From positions 330,001 through 362,000 of the forward strand of contig CAVRAI010000007.1 of the NCBI GenBank assembly GCA_963718915.1: a stretch of DNA of 32,000 nucleotides, written 5' to 3'. The position numbers and the translations under genes were made by a program. This document shows positions 2,321-31,249 of the stretch, one piece after another. The notes beneath the pieces are model-generated. The model saw only the letters and a list, made by a program, of their open reading frames with translations, was not told the origin of the DNA and searched no databases. The DNA is from an uncultured Chloroflexia bacterium. GTDB lineage: Bacteria; Chloroflexota; Ktedonobacteria; Ktedonobacterales; JADMIN01. Position 1 is the stretch's first letter, and every line of letters begins with the position of its first letter.

Positions 2321-2779
2321 TTACCCCTGGTGCGCGGGCTGATCGATAAATGTCGTGATCCGTGTTGCAATCCCATCCCGCACCGAACGAAAGGCCGCCA
2401 ACCGCTCAGCCTCAGTTCCCGTCGCGGCGCTGGGATCAGGGAAGCCCCAGTGTTCCTGCCGACGCGCCCCTGGGAAGAACGGACACTCTTCAGCGGCCTC
2501 GTCGCAGACTGTCACCACTAGGTCCATCGGTGGCTGACCGATAAACTCATCGAGCGACTTCGCCCGGTAGCCCGCTGCCTCACTGATATCGATGTCAAGC
2601 TCGCGCATCACCTGGATCGCTAACGGGTGTACGCTCCGCGGATGGGTTCCCGCGCTAAAGACAGCGTAGCGATCTCCGCCGCGCGCCCGTAGAATCCCCT
2701 CGGCCATCTGCGACCGTGACGAGTTGTGTGTGCAGAGGAACAGGACGTGCATTACCTCGGAATGATTTGCCTCGCTCAT
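2321..2779 (-). CDS. arsC: arsenate reductase, LMW-PTP / thioredoxin-coupled type
   Basis: The P-loop is 'VLFLCTHNSSRSQMAEG' (CX5R), followed by the Cys pair 'VCDEAAEEC' (C-x6-C). The ORF opens at 2803. ATG 2779 is preferred because AAGGAG lies 7 nt upstream. Confidence 0.85.
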   Translation of the reverse strand: MSEANHSEVMHVLFLCTHNSSRSQMAEGILRARGGDRYAVFSAGTHPRSVHPLAIQVMRELDIDISEAAGYRAKSLDEFIGQPPMDLVVTVCDEAAEECPFFPGARRQEHWGFPDPSAATGTEAERLAAFRSVRDGIATRITTFIDQPAHQG

Positions 2780-2822
2780 GTCAAACTCCTTTCGCGTATG
2801 CACGGTGCTGCCTCCTGGCAGG

Positions 2823-3509
2823 TCAGGAGGGCGAGCGGGAGCGCGATGGCGCCAGACTCGTCAGGCGCAGCCAACGATAGCAGAGCGCCGCCAGCACCGC
2901 GCCGATGGGTGGCGCGATGAGATAGACCCACAGCGCGGCCCAGGTTCCGCCGACGACGGCTGGCCCAAGCGAGCGCGCAGGATTCATTGAGGCGCCGCTA
3001 ATCGGCCCGGCAAAGAGCGCCTCCAGCCCCACGGTTGCCCCAATGGCCAGGGCAGCGGCCTGCCCTACCGCACGTGTATCAGTGGCGACCGCCATGATGA
3101 CGAACATCAGGAAGAACGTGAGCAGCGCTTCCAACCCAAAAGACTGCCAGACCGATCCTGACGGCATAGTTGCGCCGAGATGCGCGACGTTCCCGAGCAG
3201 CAGGCGCAAACAGAGTGCGGCCGCAAGGGCGCCAATGCACTGTGCCAGCCAGTAGGCAGCCATGCGTCGGATGGGGAAGTGACGGGCCAGGACGAAACCA
3301 AGCGTGACGGCGGGATTCAGGTGAGCGCCGCTGAGATGCCCGGTCGCGTAGATCATTGCCGCGATGACCAGTCCGAATACCAGGCCGACGCCAACATGGG
3401 TCACCTGCCCACCGGAGATGGCATCCACCATGATGGCGCCGCACCCCGCGAAGACTAACCCGAACGTGCCGATTCCCTCGGCCACGCATGCCGGAAGCAA
3501 CGGGGACAT
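2823..3509 (-). CDS. MIP-family aquaporin/aquaglyceroporin, probable arsenite channel (AqpS-like role)
   Basis: Two NPA boxes are present, 'HLNPAVTLG' and 'SMNPARSLG', plus the N-terminal 'AEGIGTFGLVFAG'. The ORF extends to 3677 but would then overlap the upstream gene. ATG 3509 (MSPLLPACVAEG...) gives a typical length of about 228 aa. Alternative starts at 3602 and 3623 are possible. Confidence 0.8.
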   Translation of the reverse strand: MSPLLPACVAEGIGTFGLVFAGCGAIMVDAISGGQVTHVGVGLVFGLVIAAMIYATGHLSGAHLNPAVTLGFVLARHFPIRRMAAYWLAQCIGALAAALCLRLLLGNVAHLGATMPSGSVWQSFGLEALLTFFLMFVIMAVATDTRAVGQAAALAIGATVGLEALFAGPISGASMNPARSLGPAVVGGTWAALWVYLIAPPIGAVLAALCYRWLRLTSLAPSRSRSPS

Positions 3510-3651
3510 CGCGGGAATGGTCTGCCCTGCGTGCGGTGCGCGCTCCTCTCGCTGTGGAGGTTTCCGCGGCTTCTCTGCCCTTCGCGAGGTCCAACCTATC
3601 ATGTATTGACTACTTCTCCTCATCTCTGTATCGGCATAGGGGCTGTCTGCA

Positions 3652-4494
3652 TCAACGGGTCGCATGAAAACGCTCACTGGTTCCGGGATGTGGAAGCAGG
3701 AGCAGGTAGCGGATACGTATCCGCAACTCGTTCAACACCTCGCGAAATGCCTTAGCACGCCGCTCGGGATCCTCGACCACCGCTGGGTCGGCGATGCTCC
3801 AATGCGCTTGCGCTGGGTCGCCAGGAAACGACGGGCAGATGTCGCGTACGCGGTCACAGACAGTGATGATGTAGTCTAATGGCTCGCCGAGGAACTGCTC
3901 CATCGATTTCGTGGAGAGTCCCGTCGTGTTGAACCCTGCCTCCCGCAGCGTCTCACGCGCCTCGGGATGCACCTCGGTGGGTAGGCTCCCCGCGCTGAAC
4001 GCCTCCACCTGGTCGCCTCCCATCTGGCGTAAGAGGGCCTCCGCCATTTGCGAGCGCGCGCTGTTATGGGTACAGAGAAAGAGGACACGCAAGGGTTGCG
4101 AGAGTCTATATGGTGTGTCCGGCTGCTGATGAGGCTGGGCCAGTTGAGTTGATGTCGGCATACCAGGATACAGCGCATCGCCAGCGGCAGAGTACAGGGC
4201 ATGCAGACGGCTAACATCCAGCTGATAATACACATCGCGCGCATCGGCGCTACTGCGTCGGTCATGCAGGAGACCGAGCGCTCTTAACTGCTTTAGATGG
4301 TATGAAACCGCGTTTGGAGGCAGGCGCACCACCGCCCCAATCTCACTCGCACGCTGGTCGGACTGGGCAAGGAGGCGCACAATCGCTTGCCGCGACTCAT
4401 CCGCCAGCAGACGCAGAAATCGCCTGCCGTCGTCCGAGGTTATGGAGTCAGTTTCACCTAGCGAGAAGGTATGCATAGCAACTTTTGCCTTCAT
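3652..4494 (-). CDS. ArsR-family wHTH domain fused to an LMW-PTP ArsC arsenate-reductase domain
   Basis: The N-terminal part, 'FLRLLADESRQAIVRLLAQSDQRASEIGAVVRLPPNAVSYHLKQLRALGLL', is an ArsR/SmtB HTH with no cysteine. The C-terminal part has 'VLFLCTHNSARSQMAEA' and 'VCDRVRDIC', so all three ArsC catalytic Cys are present. Confidence 0.8.
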   Translation of the reverse strand: MKAKVAMHTFSLGETDSITSDDGRRFLRLLADESRQAIVRLLAQSDQRASEIGAVVRLPPNAVSYHLKQLRALGLLHDRRSSADARDVYYQLDVSRLHALYSAAGDALYPGMPTSTQLAQPHQQPDTPYRLSQPLRVLFLCTHNSARSQMAEALLRQMGGDQVEAFSAGSLPTEVHPEARETLREAGFNTTGLSTKSMEQFLGEPLDYIITVCDRVRDICPSFPGDPAQAHWSIADPAVVEDPERRAKAFREVLNELRIRIRYLLLLPHPGTSERFHATR

Positions 4495-4511
4495 ATCAAT
4501 AGTTCAGTGGA

Positions 4512-4524
4512 AATTGAATCAATT
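4512..4524. promoter_or_regulatory. palindrome AATTGA-A-TCAATT, candidate ArsR-type operator
   Basis: Perfect 6-1-6 inverted repeat in an AT-rich stretch. It lies just downstream of the predicted -10 box and upstream of the ArsR-ArsC start codon. Confidence 0.4.
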
Positions 4525-4533
4525 CTGATTGAA

Positions 4534-4562
4534 ATAATAAGCATGAGAGAGGCGCTTGTCAA
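4534..4562 (-). promoter_or_regulatory. near-consensus sigma70-type promoter for the arsR-arsC / aquaporin / arsC unit
   Basis: On the minus strand: TTGACA (4562-4557), a 17-nt spacer, then TATTAT (4539-4534). Confidence 0.55.
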
Positions 4563-4573
4563 GACCCGAAGCG

Positions 4574-4616
4574 ATGCCCGGCGCAAGTGGCGAACTCGCG
4601 CCACCACACCGGGCAT
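4574..4616 (-). terminator. compound GC-rich hairpin downstream of arsM (candidate terminator without a U-tract)
   Basis: The outer stem is ATGCCCGG / CCGGGCAT (8 bp). It encloses an inner stem GTGGCG / CGCCAC (6 bp). The hairpin sits between the arsM stop (4668) and the next promoter. Confidence 0.35.
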
Positions 4617-4667
4617 GAAGCGATAGGAGAGAAATTGTAACCCGTGCCCTGGCTGTTCGCTTCCAGC

Positions 4668-5654
4668 CTAACAGCAGCCGCGAGGCGGTGTCGGCTTCGC
4701 GTCGGCGCGGCTGACCAGTGCGACAGGCGACGCAGAATGCGTCGCCTCGGCCACCGTAGCGGTCACTGGCTTCGTGGCGCGAACAAATGCGCTGGCTAAC
4801 TTGCCATCGCCCGATTCCCAGCCCTCAGGTAACGTCGTGGGATCCAGTCCAGCCTCGGCGACGGTGTAACGCCGCGTGATCTCGATGCTGATGTCTTCAA
4901 ATCCGGCTTCCGCGAGCAGCCGCTGGTACTCCTCGATATTGAGTGCGCCTGCGAGGCAGCCGACCCATGCCTCCATATTGCGGCGAAGTTCCTCGGGCAC
5001 CGGGCCATCGGCGATGACATCCGAGACCGCGAAGCGACCGCCGGGCCTGAGCACGCGGAAGGCGTCGCGCAGCACCAGCGACTTATCGGCGGCCAGATTG
5101 ATGACGCAATTGCTAATCACGACATCCACAGCGTTCGCTGGCAGCGGAATCGCTTCAATGCGCCCGCGCAGAAACGCGACGTTGGTGACTCCTGCCTTCG
5201 CTTTGTTCTCCTGGGCGAGCGCCAGCATCTCGTCGGTCATATCGACGCCATAGGCGAAGCCCGTTGGGCCAACGCGCCTGGCTGAGAGCAGCACATCGAT
5301 GCCCCCACCGGAGCCAAGATCAAGGACGGTCTCACCCTCGCGCAGATCGATGAGCGCGGTCGGATTGCCGCAGCCGAGGGACGCGATAACGGCCTCTTCG
5401 GGCAGCCCGGCCACCTGCTCGTCATCATACAGCCCGCTGGTCACGATGTCGCCACTCTGGTCGCCGCAGCCACAACCGCCACCGCCGCAGCCGCCACTGG
5501 CATCGCTACCGCTCTGCACCCGCTGGGCGGCTTGCGCGTAGCGCTCGCGCACACGCTCCGTGATCGCGTCTCCAACAGCGTCAGCAGAAGTAGCTGGTAC
5601 CTCAGCCACCGTGGAATGTGCCTGCGGCTCATTCGCCGTGTTCGCCATGCTCAC
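4668..5654 (-). CDS. arsM: arsenite S-adenosylmethionine methyltransferase
   Basis: SAM motif '[16 protein letters not shown]'. Conserved Cys contexts are 'SLGCGNP', 'ISNCVINL' and 'WVGCLAGAL'. The start is GTG 5654 or ATG 5648, with AAAGGA upstream. Confidence 0.85.
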
Positions 5655-11992: not shown

Positions 11993-12760
11993 CTAGCGCG
12001 GCGCCATTCTTATCGCGCCATCCAGCCGGATCGTCTCGCCGTTGAGCATCGTGTTCTCGACGATAGACTGCACCAGCGCGGCGTACTCCTCCGGGCGGCC
12101 CAGCCGGGGCGGGAACGGCACCTGCTGGCCGAGCGACTGACGCGCTGGCTCTGGCAGCCCGGCGAGCATCGGCGTGTCGAAGATACCCGGCGCGATGCTC
12201 ATCACGCGGATGCCATAGCGCGCCAGCTCGCGCGCAATCGGCAGTGTCATGCTGACGACGGCGCCCTTCGAGGCGGAGTAAGCCGCCTGACCAATCTGCC
12301 CATCGAAGGCCGCGACCGAGGCCGTGTTGACGATGACGCCGCGCTCGCCCTCGGCGTCTGGCTCGTTGCGCTGCATCGCGTCGGCTGCCAGGCGGATCGA
12401 GTTGAAGATGCCGACGACGTTGACCTGAAGCACTTTCGCAAAGCGGTTGAGGTCGTGCGTGGTATCTTTGCCCAGCACTCTCTCGGCAATGGCGATGCCC
12501 GCGCAATTCACTACAATACGCAGCCCGCTGCCTAGCGAGGTCGCCGCCTCCACCGCCGCGCGCATCGAATCGTCGCTGGTGACATCAGTCGCTACGAAAC
12601 GCGCCTTCTCGCCCAGTTCCGCTGCCAGCGCCTCGCCCGTCTGCGCGTTGAGGTCGGCAATGACCACCCGCGCGCCCGCGTCCGCCAGCCGCCGCACCGT
12701 CGCCGCGCCCAGTCCCGACGCGCCGCCCGTCACCAGCGCGCCTGTTCCCGCTATTTGCAT
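11993..12760 (-). CDS. short-chain dehydrogenase/reductase, 3-hydroxyacyl-CoA dehydrogenase-like
   Basis: Cofactor motif '[12 protein letters not shown]' (TGxxxGxG), catalytic 'YSASKGAV' (YxxxK), C-terminus '..[12 protein letters not shown]'. Confidence 0.9.
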
Positions 12761-12924: not shown

Positions 12925-13194
12925 ATGCGTTCGGGATTCTTCTCATCTTATGTGCCGTGGGTTGGCGCGTTCTTCCTCGCGATTGGCCTGCTCTCGTTCT
13001 TCACCCACGCGCCGTTGCTAGGGGGCGCGCTGCTCTGCATCGGCGTGGCGTTCCTGTTGCTGGGCAACTCGGCGCAGGCATGGCCGACGCTGCCGCTCTG
13101 GCGCAAGATCGGCTCGGCGGTTGGCATCATCGTGGGCCTGGTGTTTCTCGTCACCAGCCTGATCACAACGGCTTTTGAGGCAGCTGGCGACTGA
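12925..13194 (+). CDS. small (89 aa) three-TM membrane protein, unknown function
   Basis: ATG 12925 follows GGAAAGG. The product is 'MRSGFFSSYVPWVGAFFLAIGLLSFF..LLCIGVAFLLLGN..VGIIVGLVFLVTSLI'. The ORF-track start at 12790 is an upstream extension. Confidence 0.55.
   Translation: MRSGFFSSYVPWVGAFFLAIGLLSFFTHAPLLGGALLCIGVAFLLLGNSAQAWPTLPLWRKIGSAVGIIVGLVFLVTSLITTAFEAAGD
13058..13176 (+). repeat. 119-nt direct repeat, copy 1 (the functional 3' end of the small membrane-protein gene)
   Basis: Ungapped hand alignment to 14676-14794 gives 107/119 identical positions. Confidence 0.85.
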
Positions 13195-13343
13195 AGTCGC
13201 GCCTAGTTGGCCTGCGGCCACGAAGTCTGCCTGCGCGAACTCACAGATCCCATCCCCACCGAATACGCTGACATTGCACATTCTCTCGAACGCGCATAGG
13301 CGGGTTTTGTGGCGGAGCGGGGTGAGGCCATAAAGGCGCGGTT

Positions 13344-13832
13344 TTAACGGTCGGTTCCCTCGGATTGGGGAAGCGTGCTGTATTCAAGTTCCAAACCATC
13401 GTCAGCAATCTGCATAGGCTGCCGAGAACGTTCGATGACGTAACAGTAAGCCAGCGCAAGAACGGGAATTACAGCGGGAAGCGCAGTCATGAGGATGAAT
13501 GCTGCAAGGTTGTATCCTTGCGAGTTCTCAATAAAAGGCTCATTCAAGTCAGAATCCACAAAAAAGAGCCGCGGTCCAAAGTTGACCAGGATGAGCGGCA
13601 CGAGCATCGCGACGAACCAGCCCCACTGGCGGCGTGACCCAGAGACGATAAGCCCAATGATACCCACGGCAAAGCAAAGTCCAGACACAAGCATCGTGAC
13701 AACTATGAACATCAATGCAATAACGGCAGTTTCCTGTGGAGAGAATACGTCGAGTCCAATAAGAATCGCGGAGACCGCCGCAACGATAAGGCTGATTCCA
13801 GAGAGACGGCGCAAAAGGTGCATCATAGACAT
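13344..13832 (-). CDS. hypothetical multi-TM membrane protein (low-GC islet)
   Basis: 162 aa from ATG 13832, with AAGGA upstream. There are four to five hydrophobic helices, for example 'ISLIVAAVSAILIGL' and 'LCFAVGIIGLIV'. GC is visibly lower than in the flanks. Confidence 0.55.
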   Translation of the reverse strand: MSMMHLLRRLSGISLIVAAVSAILIGLDVFSPQETAVIALMFIVVTMLVSGLCFAVGIIGLIVSGSRRQWGWFVAMLVPLILVNFGPRLFFVDSDLNEPFIENSQGYNLAAFILMTALPAVIPVLALAYCYVIERSRQPMQIADDGLELEYSTLPQSEGTDR

Positions 13833-13932
13833 ATTCTTTCCTTGAAGAAACGCGATGGGGGAAATACCCAACAAGACTGCCTCGTTTCCCCCATCTGTCC
13901 GGTTGCTGACTACATAGAGCCTTCAGCAGGCG

Positions 13933-14409
13933 CTACACCCTTTGTACGATGCAACATACCCAGTAGACCGTAAGATTTACTGTTGGACTATTCACCCTAT
14001 TACCATTGTAGAGGTACTCGTATGCTACCATGTGGTACGTCGAGTTCTTCCCATATGGGGTTGTCACGTCATGGTAAAAGTCTGTGTCACCAACTCCACA
14101 TCTGAGGTGACAGGTATAATTCTGCGTGTCACCATCCCCCCAGCTTAGGTAGACAACGAGGCTTTCCGTAACTCCTTCTTCGCAATTCCAATGAACATGC
14201 GCATGGACATTCTGTCCAGTATCTGCCGGGTTCGGTGTAACATAGGTGATTTGGACCGAGGAGTTAGTAGGTTGACACCCAGCTCCAATGTCGGGGCTAG
14301 CACTTCCATGCGGAGCGCTGGTTTTCGCGGGCATAGCCAGAGCGGAAGGGGCAAACATTGCGGAACACAGCAGGACTACCAGACTGAGGATCGCAAATCT
14401 GGCCTTCAT
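13933..14409 (-). CDS. hypothetical secreted Cys-rich protein (low-GC islet)
   Basis: ATG 14409 has GGAGG 6 nt upstream. The signal peptide is 'MKARFAILSLVVLLCSAMFAPSALA'. The mature part contains 7 Cys and no motif I recognise. Confidence 0.6.
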   Translation of the reverse strand: MKARFAILSLVVLLCSAMFAPSALAMPAKTSAPHGSASPDIGAGCQPTNSSVQITYVTPNPADTGQNVHAHVHWNCEEGVTESLVVYLSWGDGDTQNYTCHLRCGVGDTDFYHDVTTPYGKNSTYHMVAYEYLYNGNRVNSPTVNLTVYWVCCIVQRV

Positions 14410-14474
14410 TCCAAACCTCCATGCACTTACGTGATACAAATTGCTGGCGAGCCATGATCATCGATGCATCACAA

Positions 14475-14502
14475 ACTTTATCGTTTTTTTGTGGCCTGTC
14501 AA
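14475..14502 (-). promoter_or_regulatory. candidate promoter (TTGACA-16 nt-TAAAGT) for the islet genes
   Basis: On the minus strand: TTGACA at 14502-14497 and TAAAGT at 14480-14475. Confidence 0.3.
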
Positions 14503-14674
14503 GAGTGCATCCTTGCTACTCATGACAATGACCCTCAATACTTCCAGTAATCGTGGAAAAATCGCCCTACTTCGGAATCGCGGCGACGACCTCTTCGCAT
14601 AAGCGCGCTATTGTCTCGAAGTCGCCGAAGCGAATCATGGCGTGCGAGTCGCCGAAGTCGATCAGCGACCGTAG

Positions 14675-14797
14675 CTGCTGGGCAACTCGGCGCAGGCGTG
14701 GCCGACGCTGCCACCCTGGCGCAAGATCGGCTCGGCGGTTGGCATTATCGTGGGCCTGGCGTTTCTCGTCGCCAGCCTCATCACCAGCGGTTTCTGA
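14675..14797 (+). pseudogene. orphan 3' fragment (40 codons plus stop) homologous to the small membrane-protein gene
   Basis: It reads 'LLGNSAQAWPTLPPWRKIGSAVGIIVGLAFLVASLITSGF*' and is immediately preceded by an in-frame TAG (14672-14674). Of the 11 codons that differ from copy 1, 6 are synonymous. Confidence 0.7.
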
Positions 14798-14855
14798 TCG
14801 CTCACACGGCGCCAGACATGATCCACGGTAGTCTCGCCTCTCGCGCCCTCAGACG

Positions 14856-14864
14856 TGATACAAT
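14856..14864 (+). promoter_or_regulatory. candidate extended -10 promoter element (TGaTACAAT) upstream of der
   Basis: TG at 14856-14857 and TACAAT at 14859-14864, about 40 nt upstream of the der ATG. No good -35 box is present. Confidence 0.3.
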
Positions 14865-14903
14865 CAGAGCTATTGTGTGTGCCAGGAGCGCTGGAGTATT
14901 GCG

Positions 14904-16394
14904 ATGAAACCGCTTGTTGCTATTGTTGGACGCCCGAATGTGGGCAAATCGACCCTGTTCAATCGGCTCGTGGGCGAGCGTCTCGCGATTGTCGAGGATC
15001 TGCCTGGCACGACGCGCGACCGGCTCTATGCCGACGCAGAGTGGAATGGGCGCGTCTTCTCGCTCGTGGATACCGGCGGGCTGGAATTAGGCGCAAGCGA
15101 GGACATCACCGCGAGGGTTGCGGCGCAGGCGCAGCTGGCCATCGAAGAGGCCGATGTGATCGTCCTGCTGGTGGATACTAAGTCGGGAATTACTGAGGCC
15201 GACGCCGAGGTGGCTGAGATATTGCGGCGCTCGGGCAAGCCGGTGGTGCTGGGCGCGAACAAAGCGGATAACCTCACCCGCCGTCAGGAGGCTGTCGAGT
15301 TCTATTCGCTTGGTTTGGGCGAGCCAATCACGCTGGCCGCCAACTCCGGCACCGGCACCGGCGACCTGCTCGATGCAATTACTGAGCATCTGCCGCCCGC
15401 CGAGGAAGAGGACGAGGCGGCGAGCAATGGTATCCCGCGGCTGGCGATTGTCGGCCGGCCCAACGTCGGCAAATCGTCGCTGCTCAACGCCATCGCCGGG
15501 GCGGATCGCGTCATTGTCAGCGATATCCCCGGCACGACACGCGATGCGATTGACACCGAGGTGGAGTACAAGGGCCGCCGCGTCACGCTGATCGATACGG
15601 CGGGCATCCGGCGGCGCGGGCATATCGGCCCCGGCGTCGAGAAATACAGTGTTTTGCGCGCCGACCGCGCCATCGATCGCTGTGATGTCGCGGTGCTGAT
15701 GATCGACGCGGTGGAGGGCATCACCGCGCAGGATACACACATCGCGGGCTACATCAACGAGGCGGCCAAGGGCATCGTCATCGTCATCAACAAGTGGGAC
15801 ATCATCAAAGAGCGCCGCCGCGAAGCCGAGATATGGGCCGACCCCGATGTGCCGATTCTGCCCAGCGAGAATGTGGACCTGGCCGCGCTAGAGGTACGCG
15901 ACGCCGAGGCGTATATGGACGAAATGCGCGAGAAGCTGAAGTTTGTGCCGTACGCGCCGCTGGTCTTTGCCGCGGCCAAGACGAAGTACCACGTCAACAA
16001 CATCCTCGACCACGCGCTACGCATCAACGATACGCGCTCGATTCGCGTGCCGACGGCGCAACTGAACGAGATTGTGCGCGACGCGGTGCAGCGCCATCAT
16101 CCGCCGAGCTCGCAGGGGCGGCCACTGCGCATCTTCTACGTGACGCAGGCCGAGACGAATCCGCCCACGTTCGTCTTCTTCGTCAACGACCCGGAGTTGC
16201 TGCATTTCTCCTATCGCCGCTATCTGGAGAACCAGTTGCGCAATGTCTTCAGCTTCGAGGGCACCGCGATCCGGCTCCAGTTCCGCGCCCGTACCACCGA
16301 CCGCGGCGAGGACGACGAGAAGAAAGGCAAAGCCAAGCCGCGTCCAGGATCGAAGTATACAGGCAAACGCCCCGCGACGAGATCGCGACGGTAG
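14904..16394 (+). CDS. der: ribosome-associated GTPase Der/EngA
   Basis: Two tandem GTPase domains, 'GRPNVGKSTLFN..DTGG..NKAD' and 'GRPNVGKSSLLN..DTAG..NKWD', are followed by a KH-like C-terminal domain and a Lys/Arg-rich tail. ATG 14904 is preferred over the ORF-track start at 14877. Confidence 0.95.
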   Translation: MKPLVAIVGRPNVGKSTLFNRLVGERLAIVEDLPGTTRDRLYADAEWNGRVFSLVDTGGLELGASEDITARVAAQAQLAIEEADVIVLLVDTKSGITEADAEVAEILRRSGKPVVLGANKADNLTRRQEAVEFYSLGLGEPITLAANSGTGTGDLLDAITEHLPPAEEEDEAASNGIPRLAIVGRPNVGKSSLLNAIAGADRVIVSDIPGTTRDAIDTEVEYKGRRVTLIDTAGIRRRGHIGPGVEKYSVLRADRAIDRCDVAVLMIDAVEGITAQDTHIAGYINEAAKGIVIVINKWDIIKERRREAEIWADPDVPILPSENVDLAALEVRDAEAYMDEMREKLKFVPYAPLVFAAAKTKYHVNNILDHALRINDTRSIRVPTAQLNEIVRDAVQRHHPPSSQGRPLRIFYVTQAETNPPTFVFFVNDPELLHFSYRRYLENQLRNVFSFEGTAIRLQFRARTTDRGEDDEKKGKAKPRPGSKYTGKRPATRSRR

Positions 16395-16479: not shown

Positions 16480-16670
16480 CGCGGCATGATGTACTTTTAC
16501 CATGTACGACGGACACGGGCATTGCGGTGGGGTGAGCAAGCCGGAGCGTAAACGCTTCGGCGAATGGGATTGGGAGGCGGAAAATTCGCCGTAGCATTCA
16601 TGCTACAGTCTCCCTCGCCTACCACAACGTAGGGTGTTCCGAAGAAAAAGTAAAAGCACATCATGCCGCG
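16480..16670. repeat. hairpin-ended ~190-nt repeat element, copy A (candidate structured ncRNA or MITE-like element)
   Basis: The terminal arms 16480-16516 and 16634-16670 are inverted repeats; the outer 21 nt are complementary with one mismatch. The core shares identical 28-nt and 25-nt blocks with copy B, including the hairpin GTAGCA-TTCA-TGCTAC (16591-16606) and the stem CGGCGAAT / ATTCGCCG. Confidence 0.75.
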
Positions 16671-21794: not shown

Positions 21795-21984
21795 GCCTTC
21801 TGATGCAGTTTTAGCATGTGCGACGGACACGGGCATTGCGGTGGGGTGCGCAGGCCGGAGCCTGAAGACCCCGGCGAATGGGCCAGAGAGGGCGGGAAAT
21901 TCGCCGTAGCATTCATGCTACGGCCCGCCTCGCCCACCACGACGTGCGGTGTTCGGCGTACATAGTAAAACCACATTATAAGGC
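21795..21984. repeat. hairpin-ended ~190-nt repeat element, copy B
   Basis: The arms 21795-21830 and 21949-21984 are 36 nt, ungapped, with 27 Watson-Crick-compatible plus 3 G:T-compatible positions. The core contains the extended hairpin GCCGTAGCA-TTCA-TGCTACGGC (21903-21924). Confidence 0.75.
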
Positions 21985-23428: not shown

Positions 23429-25621
23429 ATGCGGTATGGCCGTCCTGCCCCTTCACGCAAGGGTGGTCGTGGCAAGGCGGGTCGGCGGCGCCTGCGCGAG
23501 CGCAACTTCCCCGTCAAAGTGGTTCTGGTGCTGGCGCTGATGAGCGTCATCGTCGGGTTCTGTTGCACACAGGGTACCTTGCAACTGGTGAATGTGGCCT
23601 CTGCCGCCTATGACGCGCGGGCGCAGGTCAATGCCATAGAGGCCCTGGCCAAGGGCGGCAATGTCACCGATACCGCCCATCTCACCGAGATGCAGACACG
23701 GCTTGTCGCGCTCAATGACGATCTGTTTCGTTTGCAGAGCGCGCTCCCAGGCCAGGTAGTATCGACGGCTAGCGGATCCAGTATTAACCATACGCTGACG
23801 ATGGCGCTCGATCTTGTGCAGGCGGGGCGCTATGGCGTGGATGCGGCGCTGATTCTCGTACCTCATCTCAAGGGAGTGCTCTCCGATGTGGGCAGCGGCG
23901 CCAGCGCGACCCCTGCCGCTACCGCCAGCGGCACGACGACCGCGAAACCATCCCCGACGGCCACAGCAACCGTCGGGCCGACGCCAACAGCGACCCCCAT
24001 ACCAGGCAACGTGGCCTCGGGTGGTCTGACGATGGACGATGTGACGCGCGTCCAGCAGGATATTACCTATGCCGGAGTGCTGGCTCAGCAAGCGCTGACG
24101 GAACGCCAGTATGTCAACGATGGACAGCTGCGCTCGATTGGCCTGAGCAGCGTCGTCACGATTCTGCAGAAGATGGATAGCTTCGCGCCGAAGCTGCCAA
24201 CCTATCTGAGCTATGCCAATAGCATCATGTCGGCGCTGCCGGATCTGCTCGGAGTCACCAAACCGGCGCATTACCTGTTCTTCGACATGGATAGCGACGA
24301 GATGCGCTCAACGGGTGGGTTTCTAGGCAATTACGCCCTCATCACCGTGCAAAATGGGAAGCTCATCGGCGGCGTCCACCTGCTAGACACCCTCCGGTTG
24401 GATTGTCCCAAGGGATTGAACTTCTGCCCTCCGCAGCAGATTCCCCAGCAATATGCCTGGATGAATGCATTTCCAACGTCATTCCTCATGCGCGACGCCA
24501 ACATCTCGCCTGACTTCCCCACCTCGGCAAAGCTGATCATGCAAAAGTATCAGCAAGAGAGCGGCCAGGCGGTCGATGGCGTCTTCATGATTACGCCAGA
24601 GATCATCCGGGACATTCTGAAGCTGACGGGGCCGTTGAAAGCGGATGGTTACGATAAGGAGGTGAATGCGCAGAACCTCCAGGATGTTATTCACTACTAC
24701 CACATCGTCGACCGCGGCGATACGACACCGGTGAACGGCAACACCGCCAGGAAGGCGTTCGATTCGCAGCTCGGCAGCCTGCTGCTGCACAAAGTCGCTA
24801 CGCTGAGCGCGTCGCAGCAGGCCGCGCTGATGAAAGAGGTCCTCGAAGGCTTCGGCACAAAAGATGTGCAGGTCTATCTCAATGATTCCAGGGTCGAATC
24901 AGTGCTCAGTACATTGCATATAGACTCCACGATCCCGATGCCAACTGGCATGGATGGGATATTGCTCTCGGATACCAATGTCGGGGCGACCTACTACAGC
25001 CGCGATATGGAGGAGACCGTCAAGGATACGATCACCTTCGACAGCAAGGGCAACGCCATCCACGACATGACCCTTACCTATACGCTGCCGTTCATCAACC
25101 ACCTCTATACGCCGGTCTATGGGGACAGTAATGGGAATAAGTACACCTGGTACAGTGGGGTTGCGCGCATGATCGTGCCTGACGGCTCCAAGCCAATCAA
25201 CGGCAACTACCTTCCCGATGGCACCTTGACCGCGATGCAGATCGTACAGTGCAATACGCCGTGGATTGTACCCTGTGGCCTACTTCCCGCGCCGGAGCCT
25301 GGCCATGTCGTCTGGGCCGCGCGCATCAACAATATGCAGGTAGGCGGTCAAACTCTCGTCTTCCACATGAAGTGGACAACACCCAATGTGCTCAAGACCG
25401 TGGACGGCAAGACACAATACAATCTGCACATCTACAAACAGGCGGGCACCCATATCGCCTACAACATCACCATTATTCCGCCCAGCAAGCAGCAGATCGC
25501 GTTGCCATTGGCCGATCCGCTCAGGACGCCTGACAAGGCGACACCCGGCATGAGCGTTCAGTTCACTAGCCCGTCACTCGTCAAAGATACGATGCTGACG
25601 GTCACGTTCGTCGGCAGCTGA
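23429..25621 (+). CDS. membrane-anchored envelope protein resembling the DUF4012 family
   Basis: ATG 23429 has GGGAG 6 nt upstream. A basic N-terminus and the TM helix 'VVLVLALMSVIVGFCC' are followed by a Thr/Pro/Ala linker. The segment 'MRSTGGFLGNYALITVQNGKL' matches DUF4012 as I recall it. The family assignment is from memory and was not searched. Confidence 0.7.
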   Translation: MRYGRPAPSRKGGRGKAGRRRLRERNFPVKVVLVLALMSVIVGFCCTQGTLQLVNVASAAYDARAQVNAIEALAKGGNVTDTAHLTEMQTRLVALNDDLFRLQSALPGQVVSTASGSSINHTLTMALDLVQAGRYGVDAALILVPHLKGVLSDVGSGASATPAATASGTTTAKPSPTATATVGPTPTATPIPGNVASGGLTMDDVTRVQQDITYAGVLAQQALTERQYVNDGQLRSIGLSSVVTILQKMDSFAPKLPTYLSYANSIMSALPDLLGVTKPAHYLFFDMDSDEMRSTGGFLGNYALITVQNGKLIGGVHLLDTLRLDCPKGLNFCPPQQIPQQYAWMNAFPTSFLMRDANISPDFPTSAKLIMQKYQQESGQAVDGVFMITPEIIRDILKLTGPLKADGYDKEVNAQNLQDVIHYYHIVDRGDTTPVNGNTARKAFDSQLGSLLLHKVATLSASQQAALMKEVLEGFGTKDVQVYLNDSRVESVLSTLHIDSTIPMPTGMDGILLSDTNVGATYYSRDMEETVKDTITFDSKGNAIHDMTLTYTLPFINHLYTPVYGDSNGNKYTWYSGVARMIVPDGSKPINGNYLPDGTLTAMQIVQCNTPWIVPCGLLPAPEPGHVVWAARINNMQVGGQTLVFHMKWTTPNVLKTVDGKTQYNLHIYKQAGTHIAYNITIIPPSKQQIALPLADPLRTPDKATPGMSVQFTSPSLVKDTMLTVTFVGS

Positions 25622-25657
25622 GTTAAGGATTCATCATCGTTATCCAGGTTGAACGTC

Positions 25658-26650
25658 TCACGCCTTCCGCAGATAAAACGCTGCCTGATCGCCACGTCCC
25701 TGCTGATTCAGTTCTTCCGCCTGGCGGTGGAATGCCGCGATCTGCTCAGGTGTGAAGATGGATTTCTGCGGATCTTGTTTATAGGATTGGGGCGCATACA
25801 GCGGGATATCGCGTTGATACTGCTCACTGCCCCAGAACTGAAACTCCGTCGAATCATAGATCACCTGGTCGAGCATAAGGCCCGCCTGTGACGCCAGCAT
25901 GCGCATGCTGTCCACTGTGTGCAGGAAATAATGGCGCGGCGCATCCAACTGCACCCAGTTCGTCCGATAATGTTCCCAGGCGTATGAGCCGCCGATAGGA
26001 ATCCTGATGAGGCAGATTCCTCCAGGCACGAGCAGTCGCGCTGTAGAGACGAGCGTCTCCAGAGGATCGGGAACGTGCTCAAAGGCATGGTGGAACATGA
26101 TAAGATCCCACTCGCCCCGCAGGTCGTGAATCGCCTGCTTGTGAATGGTTAGCCCATTCTTATACGTGATCGTCTCGCCAATATAGGGATCGATTCCCAT
26201 GACATGCGTGAAACCAGCGCTACGTAGCATGTAAAGAAATCGGCCAGAGCCACAGCCAACATCCAGAATCCGCGTATCGGTGGAGATGTCCGCCTCTGCC
26301 AGCAAATGCGCGCGTGGGTCAGGCTTCCTGCTGTCGACTATCCTGCCGACTATTCCCCGGTTGGTAGTCCCATACAGCGTGCGTAATCCTACGAGCCAGT
26401 TCTTGATGGGGTTGTGAAAGGTGGCTTCGGGGGATTCGGAAAGGCTGTAATACTCAGCAGGGTAGTATTTGCCCATGTCGGCAGGGGCATCCACCAACTG
26501 CACGCAGTGGCAATTGGAGCACTCTAGATAGGCGAACGGCTCACGCAGGCCAAACATCATTTCACGCGCGTGGTAGATGGTATTCCCCACGTCATTCTGG
26601 CAGACTTTACACGTCGTACTGTAGTGTGTCGCTTCCATATCCATGCTCAT
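25658..26650 (-). CDS. class I SAM-dependent methyltransferase with an N-terminal Cys4 zinc-ribbon-like motif
   Basis: ATG 26650 has AAGGA upstream. Motifs: 'CKVCQ..x..CSNCHC', SAM motif 'ILDVGCGSGRFL' and 'LVPGGICLIRIP'. The ORF-track start at 26824 is an extension. Confidence 0.8.
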   Translation of the reverse strand: MSMDMEATHYSTTCKVCQNDVGNTIYHAREMMFGLREPFAYLECSNCHCVQLVDAPADMGKYYPAEYYSLSESPEATFHNPIKNWLVGLRTLYGTTNRGIVGRIVDSRKPDPRAHLLAEADISTDTRILDVGCGSGRFLYMLRSAGFTHVMGIDPYIGETITYKNGLTIHKQAIHDLRGEWDLIMFHHAFEHVPDPLETLVSTARLLVPGGICLIRIPIGGSYAWEHYRTNWVQLDAPRHYFLHTVDSMRMLASQAGLMLDQVIYDSTEFQFWGSEQYQRDIPLYAPQSYKQDPQKSIFTPEQIAAFHRQAEELNQQGRGDQAAFYLRKA

Positions 26651-26852
26651 GCGTTCATCCTTTGCCTGATCGGCGGACGACACCTGGTCTTTGACAGGCT
26701 GCGTGACATCCGCGAAGGTATGAAGAGGTTGCAGTGCGGCGCCATTATAACATGGCTGCCAATGCGAAGCCATCCGAAGCCATCCGAACAGCCCACGTAG
26801 CAATAGGGGCCAATACCCGCTCATTTCCTATCATTAGTGAGGAACAGCGCAA

Positions 26853-27842
26853 TCAGTTGCTTGAGCTCAGGTATGCATAGGGTGATTGGCGCGGGAAGCG
26901 GTGGCGCGGCATGGCTACCAGCGCTTGTCGCAGGTACCGGGCTCTCTCGCGGAATGCGGCGCGCCGCCCCCGCTTTGGGGTGATCAGCGCAAGTATGGCG
27001 AAGATGGCCCACATTGGCAACCAGCACAACCACACCGTAATTGCCAGCAGTCGCGCCCGGTTGCGCCCCAAATGGGCGCGTGCGAAATAGCGGGCGCTCC
27101 AGGCCGCCTGGTTCAGCCAGCGCATGCCCTGACCGCCCGTCTTCGTTGATCCGCCACCCAGGTGGATAATCGTCGAGACGGGCGCATAACGTATCGTGTA
27201 ACCTGCGCGTTTGATGCGATAGCAGAGGTCGGTCTCCTCATAATACAGGAAGATGTTGGGATCGAATGCGCCAACGTGATTCAGCACCGAACGCGGTACC
27301 ATAATGTAGCAGCCGGACACGACCGTAACATCGCGCTCGGCGTTGTAGTCCCAATCCCGCAGTCCCTGTTTCTTTACAAACCCCGGTCGAATTCCCAGGA
27401 ATGTCAGCGTGAGCGCGGAGATCAGGACAGGTACGGTGAATGGCGTATTGCAGGTATACTGGATCGTTTTATTGGCGTTGAGCACACGCCCGCCAATCGC
27501 GCCGCAACGAGCGCCGAGGCGGTCTGCTACGGCGACCAGGCTGTCCAGCGGTTCGAGTACAAGCGTATCGTTGTTGAGGAAGAGCACATAACGCCCTCGA
27601 CAAATGGGCAAAGCGCTGTTGTTGCCCGCCCCAAAGCCGCGATTTTCGGTATTGAAGACGCATCGAATGTGCGAAGAGGCCCACTCAAGCTGGCGCAGCC
27701 ACTCCTGGCTTCCGTCGGTCGATACATTATCGACGATGATAATTTCGTAGCTACACCGAGTGCCCGAGCGCTCGATGGTTCGTATGCACTGTTCGGTGAG
27801 CGCGCGGCCATTGATATTCACCATCACGATTGAGAGATCCAT
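26853..27842 (-). CDS. family 2 glycosyltransferase
   Basis: Motifs 'LSIVMVNINGRALTEQCIRTI', 'EIIIVDNVSTDGS', 'NRGFGAGNN' and 'LFLNNDT' (the DxD region). One or two TM helices lie at the C-terminus. Confidence 0.85.
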   Translation of the reverse strand: MDLSIVMVNINGRALTEQCIRTIERSGTRCSYEIIIVDNVSTDGSQEWLRQLEWASSHIRCVFNTENRGFGAGNNSALPICRGRYVLFLNNDTLVLEPLDSLVAVADRLGARCGAIGGRVLNANKTIQYTCNTPFTVPVLISALTLTFLGIRPGFVKKQGLRDWDYNAERDVTVVSGCYIMVPRSVLNHVGAFDPNIFLYYEETDLCYRIKRAGYTIRYAPVSTIIHLGGGSTKTGGQGMRWLNQAAWSARYFARAHLGRNRARLLAITVWLCWLPMWAIFAILALITPKRGRRAAFRERARYLRQALVAMPRHRFPRQSPYAYLSSSN

Positions 27843-27926
27843 GCTATGCCTTCATTGCTCAGGATATGTCGGAGGGGTCTGTCGTCGTGCTCCATAGCGG
27901 CAATGCTCCGCGTGCTGGAGGAGTGA

Positions 27927-28583
27927 CTATTTGCCCGGCGCGAAGGAAAGCACCCAGAAATGATGGTATGGGTGCTCGGGCACTCGATAGTCCTTCGTAA
28001 TCCGTCCGTAGCGGCGCAGTACTTTACGCACCCTCCTGACTGGATAGCCCTTCGCGTCCACCTCCCAATAGTGCTGATCGTTCGGGGGCAACGTCCTGTT
28101 GAAAGGAAGAGAGACCCAGAATTGGCGATCGCGGCGCCGCACCGGCCCGAGGCGAATGGACCATGCGCGACTCAGCTGCGGGAGTGAGAGCACAATCCCC
28201 AGCCGGGCTACCCGAGACATCTCTTGAATCGCTGGCTCGAACTGGTCGAATGGTAGATGTTCCAACACCTGCGAGCAAAGCACCACATCCACCGACTTTG
28301 GCGGCAGCGGCATGTGTGTCACACTGCCAACGATGGTGGGATGAAGGTCGGGGTCAATGTCAATGGATTCGCATTGAGCTATCTCCCGGCGAAGCACATT
28401 GGTGACAATATCGTCGCCGACCCCAACCACCAGGCAAGTACGGGCTTGAAGTCCAAGCACCTCAACAATCTGATGCCAATAGCTCACCCACCGACCTTTT
28501 GGGGCATAATGGAGGAATCCATAGTGCTGGGGCGCAACCTGAACCGTGGCCCGGAACTCCTGTGGCGGGGCGTTATCATGCAT
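27927..28583 (-). CDS. class I SAM-dependent methyltransferase
   Basis: ATG 28583 has AGGAG 9 nt upstream. Motifs 'CLVVGVGDDIV' and 'VDVVLCSQVLEHLPFDQFEPAIQEMSRVARLGIVLSLP'. Confidence 0.7.
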   Translation of the reverse strand: MHDNAPPQEFRATVQVAPQHYGFLHYAPKGRWVSYWHQIVEVLGLQARTCLVVGVGDDIVTNVLRREIAQCESIDIDPDLHPTIVGSVTHMPLPPKSVDVVLCSQVLEHLPFDQFEPAIQEMSRVARLGIVLSLPQLSRAWSIRLGPVRRRDRQFWVSLPFNRTLPPNDQHYWEVDAKGYPVRRVRKVLRRYGRITKDYRVPEHPYHHFWVLSFAPGK

Positions 28584-28777
28584 CTCATTTGTCTCCTGGG
28601 TGGGGAAAACATGCTCTCCCAAAATAGCGACCGCACAACACTATGCGAGGTCAAGTCCACGACGCGACAGCATCATCAGTTCTAACGTGTCCACTGGAAG
28701 GTGGATAACTCCCTGTAGCTCGATCACGTCTTCTGGCTATCTTAACCCTATCCGCATAGCCATGTCTGTCACTTGAC

Positions 28778-31249
28778 TTATCGGTTGCTGAACGTTAGTG
28801 GCGTGTCGGCGCCAGCTAACAGCGATTTTCGCTGCGCCATGGCAAGCGTACTACGACATAGCAGTGCGTGCAATGATGCTGCCAGCTGATCTTCGGAATA
28901 TTCGTTGATGGCGCGCATCTGTCCGGCTGCGCCCAATCGGTGGGCGTGCTCGGGCGATTGTAGCACCCAGGCGAGCGCCTCCGCCACGGCTGACGCATTC
29001 CCCGGCGGCACTAACCGGCCCGTCTGCCCATCCACGACGGTATCGGCAAGCCCCCCTACATTACTCGCGACCACAGGGCGTCCGGCTGCCATGGCCTCGA
29101 CAGCGACAATCCCGAACGGCTCTGAGTGAGACGGCGCGACAACGACATCGGCGAGTAGATAGAAGAGTGCGACGTCACTCTGCGCCCCGGCGAAGACGAC
29201 ACTCTGGGCAATCTGAAGTTGCTGCGCCAATGCTTCAAGTGACGCGCGATCTGCACCTTCGCCAACGATGACCAGCTTCGCTTTGGGGTATCTGCTCAGC
29301 GCCTGCGCAAACGCATGCGCCAATACCGGCACGCCTTTCTCGGCCACCAGGCGACCGACAAAAACCACAATCGGGCCGTTCCCGCCGACGCCCAGTTTGT
29401 TCGCCAGAGCCTGACGTGTCTCGGCAAGCTGACTGGGATCGCTGGTCAATGTATGCAGGCGGGCCATGACGTCCTCTGAAACGCTGTTCGGCACTAGCAC
29501 GAATTTCTCTGGCAGAGAAGCCTTACGTGCGTGATACAGCTCAACATCAGCCTGTGACTTGCACCAAATCGCGGAAGCGCAGGAACACGCAATTTTCTCG
29601 ACGACCGCGTTACGCATCCGTCGGTAGAGGCCACGGTCCGAATAGTAGGAAGGATAGCCCGCGCTATACACTATGGTGTCGATGCCTGCGATGCGACCAG
29701 CCAGACCGGCAAGGCATCCAGCGATAGGTCCGTACACGAGCAGGGCGTCTGGCCGCGCTCGACTCAGCTGCCAGGCCAATCGAGGCACAGCACGCGCGAA
29801 CCGCACCTGACCAACAATGGGAAGCGCCTGTGCGGCGATGCCAGCCCTACGCGCGTTCTCAGCCAGTGGGCCGTCATTTCCGCAAATGAGTTCCGACTGC
29901 CAACCGTATGTCTTCAGGCCGCGCGCCGCCGAAAGAAGTACCCGTGGCCCACCGCCAATGGCGCCAGAGTCGATGATGTGGATCACTTCGCCGCTCGCTG
30001 AGCCGGAGGGCAATGCGCGCAACATCGCTTGCCGATGCCTCGACTGCTCATCAAGCGACTCCGCCAGCGTAGGCATCGCCACTGCGAGGCCCAGGAAGAC
30101 CCAGAGCAGCATGAGATACATCGAGGACGTTGCCTGCGCGCAGAACAACATGCACGTCATCGCTCCCAACAGCCCAATGGTGATCGCACGAGAAGCTGAT
30201 GGCGCTGGCCGACGTATCGCTCTGAGGACGGCGACGTACATAGCAGCCAGGAACCAAAGTATGAGTATGACCCCGATGATGCCCGAAAAGTGGAGGATAG
30301 ACAGCCCCATCGAGAAGATCCAGTAGTTATGCGGGCCGCCTTTCTCGAAGAGGTAGTACGTGGCGGTGCCCCGGCCCCAGATGGGGCTGCGTGTCCATTC
30401 GTCAACGACTAAATAGACGACTTTGACACGATTACCACCAGAGCCGCTCTGGAAATTCAGCAGCGAAGCCATGCGTGTAGAGATCGGACTGCCATCACGG
30501 ATCAAAAGCAGGAGCGCTGCAGCCAATATCGCGATACCTAACAGGGAGAAGCCAATCACAACCGGAAGGCGACGGGCATGGCGTGTGCTGTTCGCGGCGT
30601 CAAAGGCGCTGGGCACGCCTACTGATGCGTCTCGCTTGAGCTTGCCTCGTACCCATATTGTCACGCCAGTGACGATGATCGCGCCGAGGATGAACCCCAG
30701 CCAGGAAGCTCGGGTGAGGCTAAGAATGCCTCCCGCCGCACATAACGCGGCGACCAGCGCCAATGTCAGTGACAGGGGAGTAAACAGTCGTCCGCGGACC
30801 ATTTGGCTGAGTATGACTGCGACGATCAGAACCGTGACCGAGGCGAGATAATGGCCGAAAAAATTCTGCTCCGAGAACGTGCCATATGCGGATAGCAGAC
30901 CGCTCGACGCGTCGACTCGCGAACCAAACAGGTCAGTCTGGTGGAATACCCTGCTAATGCCATACAAGAGAATACCGAGCGTTGCCTCAATCGCCGCAAT
31001 AGGGAGCAATGCCCACAAAATGAAGGTCGGGTTGGTCAACTCGCTGACGATGAAGATGATGGCAGCGTAGCACATAAGACCAACGATCAATTCAGCGATG
31101 AGCGGAAGCCCAAGACTCAGTTCCTGGTGATTGACAAGAGCGGGAAACGAGCGATTCGACGACGAATAGGGCGGCGGGGAGGCGACCCGGCACCCGACGA
31201 AAGAGGCGCCTGGCCGTGCCGTTGTTGGCGTGGCGAATAAACGTGCCAA
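28778..31249 (-). CDS. fusion protein: O-antigen-ligase/polymerase-like (Wzy_C) membrane domain plus a C-terminal GT4 glycosyltransferase
   Basis: The membrane part carries 'SLTRASWLGFILGAII' and 'SPIWGRGTATYY', which are Wzy_C-like. The C-terminal part carries 'SEPFGIVAVEAMAAGRPVVASNVGGLADTVVDGQTGRLV', the GT4 EX7E region. The first ~35 codons after the TTG at 31249 look non-coding. See the frameshift finding. Confidence 0.75.
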   Translation of the reverse strand: MARLFATPTTARPGASFVGCRVASPPPYSSSNRSFPALVNHQELSLGLPLIAELIVGLMCYAAIIFIVSELTNPTFILWALLPIAAIEATLGILLYGISRVFHQTDLFGSRVDASSGLLSAYGTFSEQNFFGHYLASVTVLIVAVILSQMVRGRLFTPLSLTLALVAALCAAGGILSLTRASWLGFILGAIIVTGVTIWVRGKLKRDASVGVPSAFDAANSTRHARRLPVVIGFSLLGIAILAAALLLLIRDGSPISTRMASLLNFQSGSGGNRVKVVYLVVDEWTRSPIWGRGTATYYLFEKGGPHNYWIFSMGLSILHFSGIIGVILILWFLAAMYVAVLRAIRRPAPSASRAITIGLLGAMTCMLFCAQATSSMYLMLLWVFLGLAVAMPTLAESLDEQSRHRQAMLRALPSGSASGEVIHIIDSGAIGGGPRVLLSAARGLKTYGWQSELICGNDGPLAENARRAGIAAQALPIVGQVRFARAVPRLAWQLSRARPDALLVYGPIAGCLAGLAGRIAGIDTIVYSAGYPSYYSDRGLYRRMRNAVVEKIACSCASAIWCKSQADVELYHARKASLPEKFVLVPNSVSEDVMARLHTLTSDPSQLAETRQALANKLGVGGNGPIVVFVGRLVAEKGVPVLAHAFAQALSRYPKAKLVIVGEGADRASLEALAQQLQIAQSVVFAGAQSDVALFYLLADVVVAPSHSEPFGIVAVEAMAAGRPVVASNVGGLADTVVDGQTGRLVPPGNASAVAEALAWVLQSPEHAHRLGAAGQMRAINEYSEDQLAASLHALLCRSTLAMAQRKSLLAGADTPLTFSNR

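Follow-up and report, generated by a model that had tools for sequence, protein, structure and literature searches.

Does the pair of low-GC genes that lies between a small membrane-protein gene and der in an uncultured Ktedonobacterales bacterium (Chloroflexota) represent foreign DNA integrated at the 3′ end of a gene? The pair is found in a 32-kb stretch of contig CAVRAI010000007.1 (assembly GCA_963718915.1, positions 330,001–362,000), here termed the window, and all coordinates are those of the window unless a related locus is named. The islet formed by the two genes is bordered by two copies of the end of the small gene, S1 within the gene itself and S2 on the der side. Direct repeats of a gene end are the usual scar of DNA that integrates at the 3′ end of a gene. 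The islet, whose structure is known from one metagenome-assembled genome (MAG) contig, is best read as a remnant that lacks an integrase and resembles a cis-mobilizable element (CIME). That it arose by integration, through crossover at the 3′ end of the gene with attL/attR-like repeats left behind, is proposed with a confidence only a little above even.

An earlier reading made from the nucleotide sequence alone (the sequence-only reading) described a 119-nt repeat with 107 identical positions and no gaps. Direct ungapped comparison of S1 and S2 reproduces these figures, and an independent repeat search pairs positions 13058–13175 with 14676–14793 at 91% identity. When one gap is allowed, 111 of 122 positions are identical over the full length of the two copies and both finish at the ancestral stop codon. 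The perfectly matching blocks include one of 30 nt (13098–13127), which is the longest, and one of 22 nt (13058–13079). A 33-nt core of the repeat, searched with up to three mismatches, matches S1 and S2 only in the window, where 0.00 matches are expected by chance. The locus therefore displays the features of attL and attR in that direct repeats with identical cores flank the insert and S1 is the 3′ end of the 89-aa target open reading frame (ORF).

S2 is an orphan, as was proposed earlier: an in-frame TAG (14672–14674) lies immediately 5′ of it and it retains its own TGA (14795–14797). The end of the small gene, which the sequence-only reading placed at 13176, is located further downstream. 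The current stop codon is at 13192–13194 and the C-terminal sequence is ...EAAGD. The TGA at 13176–13178 is the ancestral stop codon, as seen in 10 of 10 aligned orthologues, and it is out of frame in S1 because of a 1-nt deletion 12 nt upstream. Homologues of the small protein (n = 23) are mostly 84 aa in length and end in GF or GL, as does the orphan S2. They are confined to Ktedonobacterales-type MAGs and genomes and to soil metagenomes, and the small membrane protein belongs to no Pfam family. The 3′ end of the gene is also prone to insertions and deletions in other genomes; related locus L005 (7446–7748) has a frameshifted version of 100 aa, and protein P0004 displays a 4-aa duplication (SLII/SLIM) in the same region. 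L005 and L014 (8465–11618) come from long-read MAGs with many broken genes, and some of these 3′-end changes may be sequencing errors.

In the ungapped alignment 12 codons differ between S1 and S2, including TTG/CTG at 13057, and seven of the differences are synonymous and five are not. This agrees with the six synonymous codons out of 11 counted before over slightly narrower coordinates. Two imperfect copies of about 120 nt, one of them at the 3′ end of a gene, could also suggest a diversity-generating retroelement that targets the small gene, with one copy as template repeat and the other as variable repeat. This is almost certainly not the case: the mismatches involve all four bases and not only the adenines of either copy, most of the differences are synonymous, and the 32 kb encode no reverse transcriptase. 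The mismatch spectrum and the missing reverse transcriptase rule this system out. A dispersed multi-copy element, which the sequence-only reading named as a finding that would speak against integration, is likewise rejected, as there are two copies in the window and a single copy, within the gene, in every relative. Simple tandem duplication is rejected because the sequence after S2 is unrelated to that after S1.

The islet (13195–14674) is the lowest-GC stretch of the window, with a GC content of 0.518 compared to 0.604 for the window and 0.631 for der. The contrast pointed out in the sequence-only reading is thus present, but it is milder than the hand count of about 43% against about 67% in der had indicated. 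GC at third codon positions (GC3) is 0.56 in the membrane-protein gene and 0.52 in the Cys-rich gene of the islet, and the mean of the 23 other window genes is 0.73 (sd 0.06, minimum 0.65). Both cargo genes are about three standard deviations below this mean (z = −2.9 and −3.6). This composition marks the cargo as foreign.

No recombinase, integrase or transposase domain is found in any sizeable ORF of the window or in the ORFs at the junctions, which is in accord with the sequence-only reading. There is no tRNA in the window, and no non-coding RNA target was found. The reading as a tRNA island is rejected. An insertion sequence (IS) or transposon is rejected since there is no transposase, the terminal inverted repeats are only 7–9 nt, and the flanking repeat is 122 nt long and diverged. 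An integron array is rejected as well; an integrase is missing, the repeats are coding 3′ ends and the cassette has its own promoter-like site.

Comparison with relatives covers about 20 loci that carry the small gene and, from a scan of metagenomes for Der, 78 der loci. Neither the islet nor the orphan S2 copy is present in any of them. An ancient local duplication, as the sequence-only reading argued, would have left the same two genes and both repeats in relatives, and this arrangement is not encountered in either set. The left flank encodes, in order, ABC and FtsX proteins, a 119-aa protein, a histidine kinase, a response regulator, a short-chain dehydrogenase/reductase (SDR) and the small membrane protein. 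It is collinear with at least seven relatives at 82–92% nt identity, and the homology ends at 13178–13182, at the stop codon. In most of these relatives a convergent gene for a membrane protein of 430–450 aa, which is absent from the window, abuts the stop codon of the small gene. Loci L015, L016 and L101 are without the convergent gene, and some relatives continue into a second SDR gene. At least five different versions of the DNA 3′ of the small-gene stop codon are found among relatives.

The closest der loci, L023 and L024, display 94% aa identity in Der and 88% nt identity, and their alignment with the window starts at 14802, which is 4 nt past the S2 stop codon. Upstream of the der block L024 has a divergent pentapeptide-repeat gene and ECF-transporter genes, and L084 has other DNA again; the DNA upstream of der differs among the three closest relatives. 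Repeat-like sequence is present in none of the 78 der loci. The DNA unique to the window is exactly 13179–14801, i.e. the islet and one copy of the repeat. The window brings together two conserved blocks, which no sampled relative has side by side, and the islet is situated at the synteny breakpoint. The coordinates of the features are given in Table 1. As a separate observation, the pentapeptide-repeat gene upstream of der (L023:1–80, L024:5725–5790) opens with a perfect 9-nt tandem repeat, (GTTGATCTC)n, which encodes an N-terminal (EIN)n.

Table 1. Features of the islet and its surroundings in the 32-kb window
Feature	Position	Strand	Basis or remark
Small membrane-protein gene (target gene)	12925–13194	+	ORF and translation; 89 aa
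Repeat S1, attL-like, resident 3′ end of small gene to ancestral TGA	13057–13178	+	1-nt deletion, Pro to Leu
Non-coding spacer, S1 to stop codon of membrane-protein gene	13179–13343	.	Matches no relative
Cargo gene 2, 162-aa membrane protein, four predicted helices	13344–13832	−	Homologues, predicted model, GC3 0.56
Cargo gene 1, 158-aa secreted Cys-rich PKD-like protein, WGDG...YTC...RCG core	13933–14409	−	HMMER relatives, GC3 0.52
Promoter-like site TTGACA-16-TAAAGT, upstream of cargo operon	14475–14502	−	Consensus match only
Higher-GC segment adjoining orphan S2	14562–14674	.	37-codon minus-strand ORF end; two GTCGCCGAAG copies
Repeat S2, attR-like, orphan 3′ end of small gene	14675–14797	+	In-frame TAG upstream; ends ...SGF*, TGA
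Start of conserved right block: der upstream region and der (14904–16394)	14802–16394	+	L023/L024 homology; Der domains
SDR gene, divergent neighbour of small gene; repeated 3′ end at 11997–12025	11993–12760	−	Domain search, motif search
Orphan SDR 3′ end with stop codon	6197–6225	−	Kept in L006/7/8, L012, L014
Second orphan SDR 3′ end with stop codon	2228–2256	−	Motif search

The structure could be accounted for as follows. About 1.6 kb of foreign DNA would have been inserted at the 3′ end of the conserved 84-aa membrane-protein gene, with a cargo consisting of a two-gene operon that has its own promoter-like site and encodes a PKD-like Cys-rich secreted protein and a 4-helix membrane protein. 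We infer that the event was a single reciprocal crossover between the last ~120 nt of the gene and a homologous copy on the incoming, presumably circular, DNA. This would leave the gene complete with S1 and strand S2 on the far side of the insert. The recombinase would have been lost, or may never have been carried, and the islet would now be a decayed remnant. It could be remobilised only through a recombinase supplied in trans, or through RecA acting between the repeats, the longest perfect block of which is 30 nt. The small gene would already have adjoined der in the host lineage at the time of insertion. This earlier adjacency, which we infer, is plausible because content is highly variable both 3′ of the small gene and upstream of der.

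The history of the two copies was followed by polarising their changes with eight orthologues. Five of the changes derived in S2 are synonymous and two are non-synonymous, and both non-synonymous states occur in functional orthologues. Under neutrality, five or more synonymous changes out of seven have a P of about 0.02–0.04. The changes derived in S1 include the replacement of a near-invariant proline by leucine and the frameshifting deletion. This substitution pattern suggests that S2 evolved mostly inside a working gene, and S1 looks relaxed. S1 is more likely to be the imported copy and S2 the native end, because S1 looks relaxed and S2 looks selected. The surrogate 3′ end that the sequence-only reading attributed to the incoming element fits such a history.

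The repeat is a mosaic. The first 85 nt are identical at 80 positions and the last 38 nt at 31 (Fisher P = 0.046). In the first 85 nt, S1 and S2 have three derived states in common that are absent from 8 of 8 relatives, which places the source of the imported copy in the same lineage or in one very close to it. The last 38 nt of S2 match those of L012 at 35 positions. S1 and S2 have probably exchanged sequence.

The deletion in S1 could be an assembly error, as frameshifts are many in the related long-read MAGs; the genes of the window are otherwise intact. Might the whole arrangement be an artefact, in which the assembler joined two related populations or resolved a repeat wrongly? This is considered very improbable. 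A chimeric join would collapse the repeat to one copy, but there are two here and they differ by 9%. Moreover, the repeats flank 1.5 kb of unique, coherent DNA with two intact genes and a promoter. Consistent with an artefact are the single MAG contig, the fact that the three proteins have one member in one contig each, the exact look-ups of the small protein, the Cys-rich protein and Der, which give no second record, the obvious frameshift errors of L005 and L014, and the S1 deletion if it is such an error.

Neither cargo protein has a Pfam family in a direct search, and the AlphaFold models of both are of low confidence (pLDDT 43 and 50). The 158-aa protein combines a signal peptide with a mature part that contains six Cys residues. 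It was previously described as a secreted protein with seven Cys; secretion holds, but one of the seven is within the signal peptide. A word-indexed search returns only the protein itself, whereas a full HMMER scan gives 28 relatives, among them a 161-aa protein at 43% identity and PKD repeats of giant surface proteins. About 20 of the relatives are small secreted proteins with a common WGDG...YTC...NCGSG core. Several giant proteins contain PKD repeats that match residues ~45–115 of the 158-aa protein (E-values of 7e-17 to 8e-5). The profile of the Cys-rich family gives one weak match in PDB, to a PKD-type chain (E = 0.06). The earlier statement that both proteins are without recognisable motifs is therefore correct with respect to Pfam families, but the Cys-rich protein falls into a small secreted PKD-like family by HMMER.

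The 162-aa membrane protein has three homologues at 61–64% identity, on contigs shorter than 1.3 kb, and its AlphaFold 2 model is helical (pLDDT 50). In L021 the homologue adjoins an IS3-type ORF. In L107 the gene order is the 161-aa Cys-rich relative, a 152-aa protein with 41% identity to the 162-aa membrane protein (E = 3e-38) and an IS256-family transposase. The recurrence of the pair in L107 indicates that the Cys-rich and membrane-protein genes form a conserved, co-transferred two-gene module. Short tandem repeats are present at both ends of the L107 contig (1–90 and 3130–3211), CGTGTCC(G/T)n at one and GCGGAGTTGACCCT n at the other. Neither repeat core has an exact match in viral contigs, and no viral relative of the membrane protein is found. 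Plasmids give no tblastn match to either cargo protein, and an origin from the phages or plasmids searched is rejected on these grounds. The defence models of PADLOC do not match the cargo.

ORFs of the spacer at 13179–13343 have no Pfam match, and a 29-nt match of positions 13208–13236 to L005 was dropped, being weak (E = 0.006) and in intergenic DNA of a frameshifted MAG. The TTGACA-type promoter reported in the sequence-only reading is present as a site, but sites of this type are not enriched over shuffled sequences. At the S2 side, the 37-codon ORF end (14562–14672) terminates in ...AAIPK and has no Pfam, plasmid or locus match. The 10-mer GTCGCCGAAG occurs at 14621–14630 and at 14648–14657, 27 nt apart and just left of S2, where about 0.07 occurrences are expected in the whole window. 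The double 10-mer could be a protein-binding direct repeat or could be due to chance.

Gene ends are repeated at this locus beyond the islet. The window contains three copies of a motif of about 30 nt from the 3′ end of the SDR gene (0 expected), of which two are intergenic orphans (Table 1). The orphan at 6197 and the real SDR end bracket the block that encodes the ABC, FtsX, histidine kinase and response regulator proteins. In L001, homology to the window stops inside this orphan (at 6217) and resumes at the SDR stop codon (11995); between the identical boundaries L001 has a different block of 5.7 kb, with a PALP enzyme, an asparagine synthase and a decarboxylase. The orphans at 2228 and 6197 bracket an ars-type cluster (2321–5654), which encodes an ArsC-like low-molecular-weight phosphatase, a MIP channel, an ArsR-LMWPc fusion and an ArsM-like methyltransferase. 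Among relatives, the 3 kb past the SDR stop codon exist in no fewer than four unrelated forms. The orphan SDR end of L007 (1175–1201) reads ATAAGA, matching its own real SDR end, and the orphans of the near-identical loci L006 (451–477) and L008 (1175–1201) have the synonymous ATTCGC. The difference points to gene conversion between the two kinds of SDR end. Gene-end insertion appears to be recurrent at this locus, with the adjacent SDR 3′ end used in the same manner at least twice.

A homologous cargo is found at an SDR end in L018. This 948-nt contig from SRR26838001 contains, in order, an SDR 3′ end, a 63-nt spacer, a 5′-truncated homologue of the Cys-rich gene, the membrane-protein gene, a 17-nt spacer and a second SDR 3′ end, and its two ends are identical over 29 nt. 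The enzyme behind the insertion of the islet may have been a site-specific integrase supplied in trans, or else RecA, which would have worked on a circle bearing a fragment of a gene end. The less specific route is slightly favoured, because the same cargo is found at two gene ends with different boundaries and orientation. A much more general process is conceivable, i.e. a mobility of cassettes in Ktedonobacterales that is aimed at gene ends and needs no integrase encoded by the element, but it is regarded as quite improbable. Under such a process small modules would circulate as circles bearing the 3′ end of a conserved host gene, crossover at the gene end would build integron-like arrays bounded by orphan gene ends, and one module could switch gene ends, from the small gene here to the SDR gene in L018.

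Several observations weigh against integration at the gene end. The first is synteny. The sequence-only reading expected an uninterrupted junction between the small gene and der in close relatives, and none has it; no empty site is present in any relative, both flanks continue differently, and both lose synteny exactly at the islet. Thus at least one further rearrangement has to be assumed. The repeats, the absence of the islet from relatives and the foreign cargo speak for the attL/attR-like footprint proposed earlier; the uninterrupted junction is seen in no relative recovered. In addition, no integrase or recombinase lies in or beside the element, the searches described above gave no carrier of the repeat or the cargo among phages or plasmids, the whole structure is seen in one MAG contig, and the substitution arguments rest on small counts (12 differences). 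The identical ends of L018 fit a repeat-cargo-repeat arrangement or a cyclic assembly path. Its cargo also differs from that of the window in its ends (the Cys-protein gene is truncated), in the gene used as target, and in its orientation with respect to the repeated end, which is reversed. One element of fixed ends and a single att specificity does not account for both cases.

The break in synteny could alternatively be the mark of rearrangement debris. S2 would then be the stump of a second, once complete small gene upstream of der and not an att scar. Two chromosomal blocks would have been fused at the site, the second copy would be either paralogous or an allele acquired from a related strain, and an unrelated insertion or deletion, e.g. 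an IS-mediated arrival of the Cys-rich/membrane-protein module, would have removed the 5′ two-thirds of this copy. The variable DNA on both sides (at least five versions 3′ of the small-gene stop codon, and different upstream DNA in the three closest der relatives) agrees with this, as do the evolution of S2 as functional coding sequence, the IS elements that adjoin the cargo pair elsewhere and the absence of a recombinase from the window. However, two copies of the small gene are found in 0 of the ~20 related loci, and several coincident events are needed to place a stump in the same orientation beside an intact gene with the foreign module alone between them. The orphan SDR ends and the arrangement in L018 are also left unexplained. 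Debris of this kind is considered fairly unlikely, though it has by far the best claim to attention among the explanations that dispense with integration.

Outside of the islet, the window displays other features. A conserved intergenic element of ~90–140 nt is found at 16582–16654 and 21834–21969, and at L005:10467–10607; it contains a perfect hairpin, GTAGCAT-TC-ATGCTAC, and matches no Rfam family. An inverted repeat with 95% complementarity is located at 16480–16500 and 16650–16670. The region 24000–29000 has a lower GC content (0.555–0.575) and encodes DUF4012 proteins, glycosyltransferases and methyltransferases. The gene content resembles that of a surface-polysaccharide cluster, and this region, too, may have been acquired horizontally.

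To our knowledge, almost nothing has been established about integrative elements of Ktedonobacteria and other soil Chloroflexota. If integration at the gene end is correct, and its mechanism ordinary, the islet itself is a routine genomic islet, and what rises above the ordinary is only the occurrence of orphan gene ends across the locus together with the same cargo at another gene end. The 3′ ends of the SDR gene and the small gene would constitute a hot spot that repeatedly accepts accessory DNA, i.e. arsenic resistance, ABC/two-component and secreted-protein modules, and the repeats of the locus can be used to look for the recombinase responsible. The analysis also defines a new conserved and mobile gene pair, a small disulfide-rich PKD-like secreted protein and its cognate 4-helix membrane protein.

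How does the locus compare with known systems? Integron arrays resemble it in having small accessory blocks in series with short repeat copies between them. Unlike an integron, the locus has no IntI, its gene 3′ ends are not attC hairpins, and its blocks contain several genes with their own promoters. Islands and prophages that tyrosine integrases insert at tRNA or tmRNA 3′ ends are similar to the islet in that the imported gene end keeps the gene intact and an orphan end marks the far side. The islet differs from them in its protein-coding target, the lack of a tRNA in the window and the lack of an integrase.

A Campbell-type insertion by single, RecA-dependent crossover predicts the anatomy of the islet, i.e. 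two hybrid homologous copies flanking the insert. It requires no dedicated recombinase, and the same cargo could use different gene ends. Insertions of this type are known mainly from the laboratory, with suicide plasmids. Here the route would need natural circles that contain a gene end and the cargo, a putative source.

The closest likeness is to CIMEs. These are described as arising by decay from an integrated element, and tandem accretion at an att site that contains a gene end is also described (PMC5704250); the CIMEs related to ICESt1, at fda in Streptococcus thermophilus, are examples (PMC5704250). The islet is unlike them in that no cognate integrative and conjugative element, integrative and mobilizable element or integrase of its specificity is known or was found. 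The two repeats, at 122 nt, are long and differ by 9%, and no relative displays an empty site or has the two flanks in the same arrangement. An uncultured Ktedonobacterales bacterium is the host, and the islet is known from sequence alone. It nonetheless has the anatomy by which a CIME is defined (PMC5704250). As in CIMEs, the islet is flanked by direct repeats, of which one completes an intact target gene at its 3′ end, genes for integration or transfer are lacking and the composition is foreign. As in CIMEs, further repeat-delimited blocks are present in tandem, here at the end of the neighbouring gene.

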